This document shows, piece after piece, positions 50,800 through 55,207 of a DNA stretch of 64,000 bases. The DNA comes from Candidatus Krumholzibacteriota bacterium (lineage in GTDB: Bacteria > Krumholzibacteriota > Krumholzibacteriia > JAJRXK01). The number at the start of each line of letters is the position of its first letter. Within the stretch, counting starts at the first letter, position 1. The notes below the pieces were generated by a model. That model made no database searches. It was not told the DNA's origin and saw only the letters and a list, made by a program, of their open reading frames with translations. Position numbers and translations under genes: made by a program. The DNA is taken from NCBI GenBank assembly GCA_963764625.1, contig CAVXTH010000003.1:32001-96000 (forward strand). Direction: 5' to 3'.

Positions 50800-52629
50800 T
50801 TGCCCGCAGAGTCCCGGCTCCGCTTCTTCGTCCTTTTGGCCTTCTCGTTCCTCGCCTCGCTGCTCGCGCATCCCGGTGGAGCGGCGGCCCAGCTGAAGCA
50901 GATCCTCCCTCCCGCCCTCCCCTGGCACGGCAAGAGCGAGGAGCTCATCGCCGCAAAGGACGATCCCTGGATCACGCCGGCCGAACAGATGCATCTGCGG
51001 GACAGTCCCTCCTACGAGCTCACGCGCGATTGGCTCATCCAGCTAGTCGACGCCTCGCCGCAGCTGAACCTGGTCTCCTTGGGCAAGAGCTACCAGCAAC
51101 GCGAGATCTGGATGGTCATCGCGAGCAAGGAGGGCGCGAGCACGCCGGAAGCTCTGCGGGCCAACGGACGTCCCACCCTTCTGGCCCAGGCCGGAATCCA
51201 CAGCGGGGAGATCGACGGCAAGGACGCCGGACTCATGTTGCTTCGCGACATGACGGTGGACGGTCGAATCCCCGAACTTCTGGACGGCGCGAACTTTCTC
51301 TTCATCCCCATCCTGAGCGTGGATGCGCACGAGCGCCGTTCGGCGACTTCCCGCATCAACCAACGCGGACCGCGCTATCAGGGCTGGCGCACCAATGCGC
51401 GCAACCAGAACCTGAATCGCGATTACGCCAAGTTGGACACACCGGAGATCCGGGCCGTGGTCGAGGCACTCAATCCGTGGCCGGTGGATCTGTACGTCGA
51501 CATCCACGTCACCGACGGAGCCGACTACCAGTACGACATCACCTACGGCTTCAACGGGAGCTTCGGGTGGTCGCCCTCCATCGGGGCCTGGCTGGAGGAC
51601 AGTTTTCGTCCCGCCCTCGACCGTGACCTGAAGCAGATGGGACACGTGCCCGGCGATCTGATCTTCGCGGCCAACGGCAAGGACATGGTCGGCGGCGTGT
51701 ATTCCTTCACCGCCACACCCCGCTTCTCCAACGGCTACGGAGACGCGCGCCATCTGGCCACGGTTCTGGTGGAGAACCACTCTCTGAAAGACTATCGCCG
51801 GCGCGTGCTGGGAACGCGCGTGTTTTTGGAGGGCGCGCTGCGTCTTCTGGCGAAACAGGGACAGAGCCTGCGCGACTCGACGGCGCGCGATCGCATCCGG
51901 CGCCGCCGGGAAATTCCCAGCTCCTTCGAAGTCGGCGAGTCCAAGCCCGAGCTCGTCGACTTTCTGGGGGTGAAGTCCAGGCGCGTCTTTTCCGAGCTAG
52001 CCGATGACAGCGTGGTCCAGTGGCTTGGAGAGCCCGAGACGATCCGCATCCCCCGCATCGTGGCCGACCACCCGACCGGCATGCTCGCGCGTCCGAAAGC
52101 CTACTGGGTACCCGCCGCCTGGCCGGACGTAATCGAACGCCTGAAGCTGCACGGGGTGAAGATGGAGGTCCTGGGTGAGGAGCAGACCCCTCGTCTCAGC
52201 TTCTACCGGCTGCAGGAGCCCAAGCTCACGGCAGAGCCCTACGAGGGACACGAGCGCGTCACCGCGACCCTCCGCGAGGAGATCCGCACGCAGCGCTTCG
52301 AACCGGGGGCCGCCCGCATCTCCACCGACCAAGCGCTGGGTGACCTGGTCATGCTGCTCCTGGAACCCCGGAGCCCGGACTCCTTCTTCCAGTGGGGGTT
52401 CTTTTCGACGGTTTTGCAGCGCACCGAGTACTTCGAGAGCTATGTCCTGGAACCCATGGCCCGTGCAATGCTAGCAAAGAACGATACTTTGCGTGTCGAG
52501 TTCGAGCAAAAACTGAAGGATGACGTGGCCTTCGCGAAGGACCCCAGGGCGCGGCTGGAGTGGTTCTACGAGAAGACGCCCTACTACGACCAGCGCTACC
52601 GACTCTACCCGGTGGGGGTCGAGCGCTAG
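50800..52629 (+). CDS. Secreted M14-family zinc carboxypeptidase
   Basis: Signal peptide; GIHSGEIDG, NLNRD, DIHVTDG. Confidence 0.88.
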   Translation: MPAESRLRFFVLLAFSFLASLLAHPGGAAAQLKQILPPALPWHGKSEELIAAKDDPWITPAEQMHLRDSPSYELTRDWLIQLVDASPQLNLVSLGKSYQQREIWMVIASKEGASTPEALRANGRPTLLAQAGIHSGEIDGKDAGLMLLRDMTVDGRIPELLDGANFLFIPILSVDAHERRSATSRINQRGPRYQGWRTNARNQNLNRDYAKLDTPEIRAVVEALNPWPVDLYVDIHVTDGADYQYDITYGFNGSFGWSPSIGAWLEDSFRPALDRDLKQMGHVPGDLIFAANGKDMVGGVYSFTATPRFSNGYGDARHLATVLVENHSLKDYRRRVLGTRVFLEGALRLLAKQGQSLRDSTARDRIRRRREIPSSFEVGESKPELVDFLGVKSRRVFSELADDSVVQWLGEPETIRIPRIVADHPTGMLARPKAYWVPAAWPDVIERLKLHGVKMEVLGEEQTPRLSFYRLQEPKLTAEPYEGHERVTATLREEIRTQRFEPGAARISTDQALGDLVMLLLEPRSPDSFFQWGFFSTVLQRTEYFESYVLEPMARAMLAKNDTLRVEFEQKLKDDVAFAKDPRARLEWFYEKTPYYDQRYRLYPVGVER

Positions 52630-52792
52630 GCGCGGCTGTCTCCCTCGAGCACCCGCGCCGCCCGTGAGCTCACCGCCTGGCGCTGAGCGGCCTCAATCTG
52701 CTAGGATCGCCAAGGCCCTTCCCCATCGGCCGCGCCTTCCCCCTGGCGTGTCGTCGACCCGCCTGCCTCTCGCGCCCACTTGGAGACTGTTC

Positions 52793-55207
52793 ATGAATTT
52801 CGACTGCCGCTCATTGGATCCCCGCATCTCTTCCGCACGTGCTCTCTTGGTCATCACCTCTCTGCTCTGGATGCTCGTCCCGCTGGAGGCGATCGCGGGC
52901 GTCGAACCCGTAGCCCTTCCACGGCTGGCTCGTGGCCCCCTTGGGGAATGCCGTCCTGGGCGACGTGGGCCCCCCAGACTACCTGGACGTGAACAACCTC
53001 GGGAGCAGCGGACAGGACGGGGTGCGTCTGGACCTCGGTTCCACCCGGGGACGCATCGGTCCCGTGCGCTGGATGGCGCCCGAGAGTCTCTCCGGTCGAA
53101 GGTACCGGGTGGTGTCCGAGGGAAGCGACGCGGCGGGGACTCTGTGGTGGGCGACGGACGCCGTGGACCGGGGGGACCTCGTCGAGTTCAGCATCGACCC
53201 CGGCAACCTGGTGGTCGACGGGTCCAACGTGGTGCTCACCCTGACCCAGAATGGGATCGCCGTCACCACCGCCGAACTGAACAACACCTGAGTCCTCTCT
53301 TCAGCTCCAGCGCTCCGCCCATCGGCGTGAGCGAGGGACTCGGCGAGATCGAGGCGGACTTCGAAGCGAGCGGCGCGAGCAAGGCGTTCGTCCCCCCGCG
53401 ATTGGACGACCGCAACTTCGAGTTTCCTCCCGCAACGCAGTTCACGATCGCCGGCGTGGGGAGCTTCACCGCCGATGGGGTGCGCATCTCCCACCGGCTG
53501 CGCCATCGGGATCGCCTGGTGCTGCACCACCTGGATCTGCTCTTCACCGAGCCGGTCGGCGTTGTGGGTTCGCAGCGACTGCGCGATGTGGCCATGGGAC
53601 CCTACTTCGGAACGACCCGCGGCCGCGGGGGAGTGTTGCTTCAGAGTTCCTCGGTGGGCTCTCAGGATCAGTTGACGGTCAGCAACATCGGCAGTAGCGG
53701 TCAGGATGGAGTCGCTTGCGACTTCGAGGAGGATGAAGTGGGGGTGGCCCTGCAGTGGGCCCCTTCGACTCTGCCCCCGCCGAGCGATGGGGCCAGCATC
53801 GGCCTTTCCGGGGACGCGGGCCGGGATACCGCGCCAGAGGATCCCGTCGTCGCCTGTTCCGCCCAATACGGGAACGCGCAGTTCGAGATCGTTCGGAGCG
53901 CCGCCACGACCGGCCCGCCATTGAAGGTGGTCTTCTACCTGGATGACCTCATCGTGGGTGTCGCCTCCGATCCCACCGCCGCGCTGCAGGTGAGCACGAG
54001 CGAGTGGCCCAGCAGCGCCGGAGTCGAGAACGGGGACGCGCCGGGGATGTCCACCGTTTCCTGGGGCTGGGATGCGCCGGTTTCCATGCAAGTGGGAACC
54101 GAGCCGGCGGTGCAGGCCGATGAGGTACGGCTGGTCTTGCCGAGTCTGGTCGCGCCGAACCAGGAGGCCCAGCGCCTCATCCTGACTCCCCCTGGCAGCG
54201 CCAGCGCGTATGGGCTGACGATCCTGGGGCGTCGAACCGTGATCAAGCCTCCGAACCCCAATTATCCCTACACCGAGTTGCGTGGCCTGCATGCGGAGGG
54301 CATCGTGCATCGAGACATCGCCACTCGCATCTCCAACATCGGGAGTAGCGGCGAGGACGGCGTCATGGTGGAATTCGAACCCACATCCGCGCTGGGAATC
54401 CAATGGCACTCGTCGTCCACCGGAGCCGGATCGCCCGGGGAACGCATCATGATGCCGACCTACGGCACCACGAGTGGCGATCCGGATCGACCGATCATCC
54501 TCGGGCAACTCTGGAACGAGAGCACCGGCAGTGAGGTGTACGTGGGAGCAGACCTGAGCCCCTTGGGCGTCGGTGGACTGATCTTCAACCTCTACGACAA
54601 TGGCATGCTGGTGAACAGCATCACCGCGGTGAACGACGCCCCGGCGCTGAGTATGCCCCTACCCCCGACCGGGATGACCGCGAGGACCGGCGCGAACGGT
54701 CCGGTTTTCTACCTAGAACTCGTTCCGGACACCCAGGTCAGCGTGGTCAGTGCGCCCACCAAGCGGATGAACAAGGCCGATCTCATCGAGGTTCTCCCCA
54801 GCGAGACCCCCAGCGTGGTTCCCACCGAGCTGGTCGCGCTCTCCCTTCGTGCATCCTCGATCCCCTGGGTCGTGATCGACAGCGCCAACCCCGCCTACCC
54901 GGTCGATGCGCCACCGTCGCGCGCCACGCCGACGCTGACCCTGTATCCCAACGCGCCCAATCCCTTCAACCCGCGCACCAGCATCGCCTTCGATCTGGAT
55001 CGCTGGGGTCCGGTGAGTCTGCGCATCTACGACGTGCGCGGGCAGCTGGTGGATGTGCTCCACGACGGCTTTCTCGAGGCGGGGCACCACCTCGGGGTCT
55101 GGGATGGGATGGACAGTGGAGGCCACAGCGTGGCTTCGGGAGTCTACTACCTGCGGCTCGAGGCCGCGGGGGAGAGCCAGACGAGAAAGATGAGCTTGGT
55201 GCGCTAG
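52793..55207 (+). CDS. Secreted three-repeat protein with C-terminal FlgD-Ig/CTD sorting domain (compensating frameshifts ~52919 and ~53288)
   Basis: GGAG RBS, signal peptide ending AIA; three (S/N)N(I/L)GSSG(Q/E)DGV repeats; tail YPNAPNPFNPRT.I.FDL...LRIYDVRGQLV...WDG.D..G..VASGVYYLRL. Coding from ~52919 to ~53288 runs in the frame of ORF 52932..53291. Confidence 0.85.
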   Translation: MNFDCRSLDPRISSARALLVITSLLWMLVPLEAIAGVEPVALPRLARGPLGECRPGRRGPPRLPGREQPREQRTGRGASGPRFHPGTHRSRALDGARESLRSKVPGGVRGKRRGGDSVVGDGRRGPGGPRRVQHRPRQPGGRRVQRGAHPDPEWDRRHHRRTEQHLSPLFSSSAPPIGVSEGLGEIEADFEASGASKAFVPPRLDDRNFEFPPATQFTIAGVGSFTADGVRISHRLRHRDRLVLHHLDLLFTEPVGVVGSQRLRDVAMGPYFGTTRGRGGVLLQSSSVGSQDQLTVSNIGSSGQDGVACDFEEDEVGVALQWAPSTLPPPSDGASIGLSGDAGRDTAPEDPVVACSAQYGNAQFEIVRSAATTGPPLKVVFYLDDLIVGVASDPTAALQVSTSEWPSSAGVENGDAPGMSTVSWGWDAPVSMQVGTEPAVQADEVRLVLPSLVAPNQEAQRLILTPPGSASAYGLTILGRRTVIKPPNPNYPYTELRGLHAEGIVHRDIATRISNIGSSGEDGVMVEFEPTSALGIQWHSSSTGAGSPGERIMMPTYGTTSGDPDRPIILGQLWNESTGSEVYVGADLSPLGVGGLIFNLYDNGMLVNSITAVNDAPALSMPLPPTGMTARTGANGPVFYLELVPDTQVSVVSAPTKRMNKADLIEVLPSETPSVVPTELVALSLRASSIPWVVIDSANPAYPVDAPPSRATPTLTLYPNAPNPFNPRTSIAFDLDRWGPVSLRIYDVRGQLVDVLHDGFLEAGHHLGVWDGMDSGGHSVASGVYYLRLEAAGESQTRKMSLVR

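Follow-up and report, generated by a model that had tools for sequence, protein, structure and literature searches.

We analysed a 64,000-nucleotide stretch of a Candidatus Krumholzibacteriota genome (GenBank assembly GCA_963764625.1, contig CAVXTH010000003.1), referred to here as the window, in which a single gene (52793..55207, forward strand, 804 codons) encodes an exported surface protein made of three modules and a C-terminal sorting domain. Two of the modules each contain a short peptide with the sequence of a protein kinase core, of the tyrosine kinase (TK) or TKL type, in a protein that has no kinase fold. The same peptides occur in truncated, secreted remnants of kinases and in proteins built on several other scaffolds. 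We consider it probable that the protein is an exported array of beta-rich modules carrying peptides of kinase descent, and that these peptides are recurring cassettes.

In this reading the peptide LHxEG[IV][IV]HRDIAxR, which opens module 3 and corresponds to the end of helix E and the catalytic loop, would descend from the core of a TK/TKL-type kinase. The same descent is proposed for some 45 residues that follow the NIGSSG motif of module 1 and end in GP[VI]RWMAPES[LI]..[RK]Y, corresponding to the activation segment and P+1 loop. Both would have entered a pre-existing, unrelated scaffold as grafts, their ultimate source may have been a eukaryote-type kinase, and they would since have been kept nearly unchanged, at the level of protein, across many unrelated secreted proteins of environmental bacteria.

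Both peptides lie where a preliminary description, made from the sequence alone, had placed them: GPVRWMAPESL at 53058 and LHAEGIVHRDIATR at 54287, on the forward strand and about 410 codons apart, the former in the +1 frame and the latter in frame with the start codon. When all six frames of the 3.57-Mb genome were scanned, HRD[LI]A[AT]R was found once, in this gene, and WMAPE twice, in this gene and in one frame interrupted by stops. When the alternative-frame piece of the gene, which holds the first peptide, was compared with the PDB by phmmer, TK/TKL-type kinases made up 59 of the best 60 matches, with Fes, FGFR2/3, FAK and Eph receptors the best of them. BLASTP aligned the same piece with a full receptor TKL-type kinase (L190) over 45 ungapped residues, 18 of them identical (E 3e-9): NNLG of the window protein stands over ADFG, and the match runs on to SD by way of APESL and, five residues past it, a Tyr, with the spacing from DFG to APE kept. 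The phmmer alignment with Fes is the same alignment. The second peptide is identical at 14 of 14 positions to one of the kinase remnants described below (L137) and at 11 of 14 to a kinase (L176). These likenesses agree with the TK/TKL-type origin that had been proposed for the two fragments.

The remnants came from a scan of genome contigs with a back-translated pattern of the second peptide. At least 119 loci were returned, of which we estimate that about 50 would be expected by chance; most matches are out of frame or antisense, and at least 25 read as credible open reading frame (ORF) contexts. At least nine of the latter are proteins of about 200 residues, most of them from Planctomycetota, that have a signal peptide and a PEP-CTERM anchor. 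In nine such proteins HRDIA[AT]RN is followed by the position of the first peptide 45–47 residues downstream, which is the spacing of Tyr kinases: RWMAPES is exact in four, present as a variant in four and lost in one (L064). DFG or a near form of it is found in two. The cut-off of the Pfam tyrosine kinase profile (PF07714) was passed by eight of 16 proteins of this kind that were scanned, L068 scoring 71.4 bits (E 9.4e-20) over profile positions 58–180 of 258, L137 reaching E 2.5e-12 and L098 and L044 about 1.5e-9; two further remnants, from the metagenome scan described below, pass it as well. The alignment of the nine remnants matches the Hanks-type kinases of the window genome at 98.8% (E 1.4e-16) over 139 columns that span subdomains III–VIII. 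As judged from their sequences, then, the remnants are kinase-derived. They have no Gly-loop, no VAIK lysine and nothing past APE, and they are exported; being truncated and exported, they cannot be enzymes. Public pipelines nevertheless name them ‘protein kinase’ (43 clusters at E ≤ 0.001, 41 of them 198–263 residues long). One remnant, L044, comes from an unpublished genome (G211) and contributes one of the Pfam scores, one of the five Planctomycetota genomes discussed below and one sequence of the nine in the alignment and profile; no conclusion hangs on it alone.

A hidden Markov model (HMM) of the nine remnants was searched against every six-frame ORF of 60 residues or more in the window genome (31,907 in total). 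The alternative-frame piece ranks first (E 1.6e-4) and the long ORF that holds the second peptide ranks second (E 7e-3); the 28 true kinases of the genome all rank below them, the best at E 0.017. The window protein and the remnants of Phycisphaerae and other Planctomycetota (at least 41 clusters of 198–263 residues) have the same two peptides, and both are secreted or anchored and non-catalytic; an NPL[YF] word is probably also common to them. They differ in that the remnants keep subdomains III–VIII collinear, pass the Pfam kinase threshold, have a different anchor and contain no NIGSSG modules. The window protein is itself no such remnant: in place of some 215 residues with a collinear kinase segment and PEP-CTERM it has 804 codons, and the peptides are what it has in common with them.

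The peptides are found on further scaffolds. A scan of metagenome contigs for GP[VI]RWMAPE returned 84 loci, about 54 of them in an ordinary kinase context (DFG before and DxWSxG after, assigned by a pattern rule, with L218 moved by hand after the Pfam scan); we take several long, low-G+C, receptor-type kinases among these loci to be eukaryotic. The others comprise seven members of the window family, two remnants and 21 loci in other contexts. Eleven of the 21 were scanned with Pfam: five are RHS-repeat proteins, four are FG-GAP proteins, one combines TIG repeats with a FlgD-type tail like that of the window protein and one has no match. The second peptide is also present in right-handed beta-helix proteins (three, of which two exceed the PF07714 cut-off on a stretch of 21 residues), in a pair of HU-fold proteins that have a signal peptide and a large insert, and in one archaeal TSP3-repeat protein.

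The two HU-fold proteins deserve separate mention. In both (L035 and L030; PF00216 E 2.9e-24 and 6.1e-9) the HU/IHF fold is accompanied by a signal peptide, then a peptide of the WMAPES type, and by a large insert in which NPLY words and the HRDIAAR peptide are found; that an HU-like protein should be exported at all is unusual. Among proteins that carry the kinase peptides, further shared words are also apparent, noted by eye and without statistics (L075, L093, L184, L233, L196, L171, L218, L035 and P0009): paired NPLY, DYNSSRSN(T/K)T, [IL]RKRPDLLxxEWDxL and HWTLEVRVNR. The paired NPLY stretches of L137, L098 and L059 resemble the Pfam family Integrin_b_cyt at E 0.076–0.095, below its threshold. 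L075 contains a piece of tail-tube gp19 (28.9 bits; cut-off 28.2) and a VgrG OB piece (33.8 bits), the latter weakly matched in P0009 also, and GHVTVLKAF is found both in L184 and in members P0019–P0023 of the window family.

The window protein is not a kinase domain, as the preliminary description had maintained. It has the HRD[IL]A[AT]R catalytic loop and the P[VI][RK]WMAPES P+1 loop of TK/TKL kinases; unlike in those kinases, the two lie in different modules of an exported protein whose model is all beta. A pattern scan of the three pieces of the gene found no Gly-loop, VAIK or DFG, only a DLG. APE stands 410 codons upstream of HRD, hence subdomains VIb and VIII are not collinear, and the protein has neither a catalytic Asn at the canonical distance nor helices F–I. 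No kinase is among the matches listed by Foldseek or VIA-align, which is weak evidence by itself. The reversed order of the two motifs, to which attention had been drawn, is real as a matter of position; it does not reflect a rearranged kinase, since the peptides sit in two different copies (modules 3 and 1) of a repeated unit.

That the modules are copies of one another is evident from comparisons of pieces cut out of an alignment of 13 family members, which gave hhalign probabilities of 98.7%, 98.9% and 99.2% (E 2.6e-16, 2.4e-17 and 1.7e-19). All follow a pattern of repeats of about 140–220 residues with LGxAxL...GxLxVSNIGSSGxDGV and a conserved Trp some 25 residues later, and the NIGSSGxDGV pattern recurs in 88 modules from other members. 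Neither the body of the protein nor its module can be assigned to a named family. The second, VIb-like peptide takes up the strands that begin a module, ahead of NIGSSG, and the first, VIII-like peptide occupies the Trp strand some 25 residues past it. The fold was predicted with AlphaFold2 for the ortholog P0002 (78% identical to the window protein; 28 aligned sequences). The model is all beta save for the signal helix, with a mean predicted local distance difference test (pLDDT) of 79.8 and a predicted template modelling score (pTM) of 0.68. In it the first peptide (residues 87–99, pLDDT 65–71) forms a strand, 87–94, and a short turn, and the second forms strands 503–507 and 510–514 directly before NIGSSG of module 3, in a block with pLDDT 79–84; a placement on strands of a beta-rich repeat was one of two outcomes that the preliminary description had left to structure prediction to decide between. 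Residues ~485–702 align with concanavalin-A-like jelly rolls in VIA-align (Z 8.2–9.2, root-mean-square deviation (rmsd) 3.4–4.3 over 146–167 residues), in the middling range of that tool. To judge from this one region of the model, the modules are probably concanavalin-A-like jelly rolls. Foldseek returned only multi-domain beta matches of low TM score for the whole model, and the ESM Atlas held no usable match for the ortholog body or for a remnant. The encoded protein is a Sec-exported, non-catalytic cell-surface or secreted protein with probably lectin-like modules.

Several comparisons bear on whether the peptides are additions to this scaffold. Eight members whose overall identity is only about 30% have the core of the first peptide without any change. 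Within this subfamily the peptide, as GPVRWMAPESLS, ranks second among 12-mers by conservation (0.86; PNPFNPRTSIAF of the sorting domain has 0.90), and the second peptide is nearly unchanged in the very distant members L022, P0009 (dockerin-anchored) and P0052, the last of which has both peptides and no GSSGxDG. Many members carry one peptide only. Few parts of the family are better conserved, which speaks against the peptides serving as variable material for diversification, a role that the preliminary description had also suggested. The 88 modules that are free of the peptides match kinases, and likewise the remnants, with an hhalign probability of 0.2%; the scaffold itself therefore seems to be unrelated to kinases and the peptides to be additions to it. 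By the same figure we rejected a derivation of the whole NIGSSG module from subdomains VIb–VIII, for which the spacings from His to NIG and from NIG to Trp look kinase-like by eye only.

A donor within the genome was also rejected. In a blastn-short comparison of both peptide regions with the genome no non-self match exceeded 17 nucleotides and none lay at a kinase gene, which speaks against a DNA patch from the genome's own kinases, and all 28 of these are of the Hanks type, with HRD[LIV]KxxN. Five Planctomycetota genomes, with 6–29 kinase matches each, contain HRD[LI]A[AT]RN six times: five times at known remnant genes and once at another site in G210. The five genomes yielded no full-length kinase that has this motif, and hence no endogenous donor, the sixth site not having been looked into. 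Synonymous sites are scrambled: the window peptide and that of L137 agree at 14 of 14 residues and 33 of 42 nucleotides, and the window and L071 at 11 of 12 residues and 24 of 36 nucleotides. Sharing of the peptides would accordingly be old, or they have been kept by selection on the peptide; as far as sequences can tell, conservation is at the level of protein and not of DNA.

The family is patchily distributed. A module 1 query found it in nine of 208 genomes of the phylum, the window genome included, and a query with the body of the protein in three of 41. In a genome of the same genus one stretch translates to the same sequence as L050, and metagenome runs from salt marsh and soil contain close relatives. 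A search of genome contigs based on P0005 gave 80 pattern matches and no relatives, and a full-text literature search, without supplements, on the peptide strings and topic words found no description of these proteins.

A number of results weigh against kinase descent. Scored on the protein itself, PF07714 gives the first piece only 12.3 bits (E 0.11; cut-off 23.1), and the second and remaining pieces match neither PF07714 nor PF00069 at E ≤ 10; this fragmentary result was what the preliminary description had expected of such a scan. Three of eight relatives scanned score 14.9–17.3 bits, all below the same cut-off. The profile of 13 family members found no kinase in the PDB at E ≤ 10, profile comparisons with kinases are local (15–16 columns), and the remnant alignment meets module 1 over 36 columns only (92.6%). 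The remnants had been fished with the second peptide, which leaves the first-peptide match at rank 1 as the only independent one in the HMM search. Confidence in the model is modest at the first peptide, and module 1 folded alone (pLDDT 66, pTM 0.42) is too poor for a fold search. The direction and number of transfers and the eukaryotic donor are drawn from motif type and from metagenomic kinases, without a tree, and these kinases are called eukaryotic by their low G+C and architecture only. Finally, in ordinary modules G[LI]xH and a conserved W..P stand at both positions already, and at similar spacings, so that drift to a kinase-like form would take fewer steps than from random sequence. An explanation by chance or convergence would draw on this point among others, native strands of the module having drifted, or been locally selected, into kinase-like sequence with no kinase ancestry; the weak and local profile scores are in keeping with it, and the peptides were picked by eye out of a very large scan, in which one such match somewhere is expected. 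We nevertheless judge chance, on the sequence comparisons, to be unlikely. Because the protein's own pieces are below threshold, the case rests on the relatives and the other loci and not on the Pfam score of those pieces: there are two independent matches within one protein, with identities of 14/14 and 10–11/12 to peptides of proteins that pass the kinase threshold; the two pieces outrank 28 true kinases among 31,907 ORFs against the remnant profile; the match with a full kinase extends without a gap over 45 residues; and the same peptides recur in at least six other types of scaffold.

In another reading the displayed catalytic-loop and activation-segment peptides would be imitations of a TKL kinase of a protist or host, serving to bind or divert whatever targets such kinases, which is close to the decoys that the preliminary description had in mind. 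Their TK/TKL type, unlike that of the genome's own kinases, their display on secreted or anchored proteins, their constancy in protein across phyla and the near-identical peptides in low-G+C receptor TKL-type kinases from the same metagenome collection all fit such a role. We think mimicry distinctly improbable: in folded kinases the segments concerned are largely buried core or active site and not surface epitopes, the carriers lie outside the cell and kinase domains in the cytoplasm, and the runs that contain close relatives are metagenomes of salt marsh and soil, which do not point to a host. Very improbable indeed is a cryptic, split or permuted kinase or pseudokinase, in which the peptides would meet in space and rebuild a kinase-like site. 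The catalytic and P+1 loops do touch in Tyr kinases, and the order WMAPES, NPLY, HRD is kept in several carriers; the lacking motifs, the all-beta model, the fold-search matches without a kinase and the many members with only one of the two peptides speak against it. A chimeric assembly or contamination with eukaryotic DNA can hardly be credited, despite the two indels in the gene and the splitting of a second surface-machinery gene of the assembly across frames, for the peptides stand in frame in independent assemblies (P0002–P0005 and P0019–P0023), at seven metagenome loci and on contigs of four runs, and the G+C content and flanks match the host gene.

Should the descent of the peptides from a kinase core hold, pieces of 14–45 residues would have been carried into unrelated extracellular beta scaffolds and held across phyla by selection on the protein. 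This would be an unusual mode of protein evolution, and it would imply an interaction common to many sediment and soil bacteria; the partner of the peptides, the origin of the PEP-CTERM remnants and the correctness of their ‘protein kinase’ annotation would become testable. The peptides may be kept as a common binding epitope for one partner, with no enzymatic role, although this is a guess and, as we see it, is likelier to be wrong than right. More doubtful, if still worth stating, is a wider possibility: that many unrelated surface scaffolds of environmental bacteria and some archaea display a portable vocabulary of near-invariant peptides for recognition by a common partner, as bait, decoy or docking site. 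The sources of such a vocabulary would be the TKL-kinase core, paired NPxY (like the integrin beta tail), phage tail-tube gp19 and VgrG OB motifs, and its further words would include DYNSSRSN, RKRPDLL..EWD, GHVTVLKAF and HWTLEVRVNR. If true, this would be a previously unrecognised system.

Two kinds of known arrangement invite comparison. In plants, the integrated decoys of nucleotide-binding leucine-rich repeat (NLR) receptors and the guarded decoy kinases PBS1 and PBL2 are pieces of kinase kept for recognition and not for catalysis. The likeness is one of working and not of membership: theirs are whole kinase domains in cytoplasmic receptors, whereas here the carriers are free-living bacteria, and peptides of 14–45 residues sit on beta scaffolds outside the cell. 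Bacterial effectors that mimic short linear motifs, and in-frame peptide insertions such as the palindromic elements of Rickettsia, likewise place the same short peptide in unrelated proteins. In the present case there is no repeat at the level of DNA and there are no injected effectors, and the segments belong to the kinase core and are not known docking motifs.

Reading of the gene is complicated by two compensating 1-bp indels relative to its orthologs, one extra base near 52910 and one base fewer behind 53288, neither of them within a homopolymer (Table 1). The close orthologs P0002 and P0003 (804 residues) and P0004 (778 residues), which are from other assemblies and 71–78% identical, read straight through. 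The ORF 52932..53291 is that portion of the shifted stretch (52914..53288) which follows a GTG. That the first motif lies in an alternative frame and would be missed by annotation proved correct: the public gene call (P0001, 626 residues) begins past the second indel and omits module 1, so that two indels cost this genome's gene call one entire domain. The indels may be true mutations or local errors of assembly; no sequencing run contains the exact stretch of the window (best share 0.27). Contigs of related strains omit one base at 52910 (run X2, which also has substitutions at 52906, 52911 and 52913) or have an extra G behind 53288 (runs X1, X3 and X4). In favour of real indels, rpoB, rpoC and three uvrA genes of the assembly (about 5,580 codons) are unbroken; in favour of an artefact, its PorU-like gene is matched in three frames, and the same-genus ortholog has a different single frameshift. 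The start-codon frame is open across the shifted stretch, and if the indels are real the product would have 125 nonsense residues in place of module 1.

Table 1. Features of the gene for the modular surface protein. Positions are those of the window.
Feature	Position	Strand	Remarks
ATG start and signal-peptide region	52793..52909	+	39 codons in the frame of the long ORF, from the translation; N-termini of intact orthologs align
First frameshift site	52910..52913	+	One extra base relative to orthologs, which puts TAG into the true frame; immediately upstream of module 1
Module 1	52914..53288	+	125 codons, readable in the +1 frame only; 79–82% identity to intact orthologs
NLGSSGQDGV, hallmark motif of module 1	52995..53024	+	
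GPVRWMAPESL, likened to kinase subdomain VIII (P+1 loop/APE)	53058..53090	+	
Second frameshift site	53288..53291	+	One base missing behind 53288; TGA (53289–53291) in the module 1 frame; start-codon frame resumes
PLFSSSAPPIG, the NPL[YF]xSSxPP word of the family	53294..53326	+	Sixth most conserved 12-mer of the subfamily
Remainder of gene: modules 2 and 3, sorting domain	53294..55207	+	637 codons and stop
NIGSSGQDGV of module 2	53684..53713	+	
LHAEGIVHRDIATR, likened to kinase subdomain VIa/VIb (end of helix E and catalytic loop)	54287..54328	+	Opens module 3
NIGSSGEDGV of module 3	54335..54364	+	
C-terminal FlgD-Ig-like/T9SS type A sorting domain	54935..55204	+	Residues ~715–804, 90 residues

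The sequence of the signal region suggests cleavage after AIA-G, and the corresponding region of the P0002 model is a helix at residues 11–28. PLFSSSAPPIG is a possible third word in common with the kinase remnants, its likeness to their NPLY/NPLF being judged by eye only. The ORF listed mechanically at 52520..55207 (forward strand, 895 residues) begins 91 codons before the true start codon, the ATG at 52793; its upstream part overlaps the end of the preceding gene and is Arg/Pro-rich and non-coding in appearance. The single frameshift of the same-genus ortholog (L010, at G002:C12) is uncompensated and lies before the last ~185 residues, around codons ..ALSLPSPP / TGMSVRAG..; P0003, which comes from another source and is near-identical to the L010 protein, is intact.

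The C-terminal 90 residues place the protein with type A cargo of the type IX secretion system (T9SS), which they resemble in both profile and fold; its body differs in having no named family. They pass the cut-offs of PF13860 (34 bits; cut-off 27) and TIGR04183 (24.2 bits; cut-off 23), and VIA-align finds the C-terminal domain of PorU (Z 10.8, rmsd 2.6 over 91 residues), FlgD (Z 9.2) and PorZ (Z 8.9). A search of the protein against its own genome gave 91 matches: this gene and 90 others that cover only its last ~140 residues, which brings the number of such sorting domains in the genome to 91 and from which it follows that the body of the protein has no paralog there. PorU was the component of the secretion system examined in the genome. 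A PorU-like (T9SS sortase) gene at G000:C6:500978-504381 scores 277.9 bits against a cut-off of 420, in three consecutive pieces that lie in three frames, and is either broken or mis-assembled.

Many of the chance HRDIA matches in the scan of genome contigs fall in one recurrent frame, ..AE[IV]AL..[DH]Q..A.R..L....GV[VI]HRDIAVR. (L057, L060, L061, L065, L067, L069, L077, L082, L086, L088, L102, L108, L109, L116, L123 and L131). Its sequence suggests a widespread conserved gene translated off frame or in antisense, unrelated to the peptides of the window protein.

None of the neighbouring genes points to a partner for the protein. Downstream lie class II aldolase and leuCD-like ORFs. The upstream neighbour (50800..52629, forward strand) encodes a secreted M14 zinc carboxypeptidase (PF00246 E 1.2e-17), and an M14 carboxypeptidase gene also adjoins the ortholog L010 in the same-genus genome.

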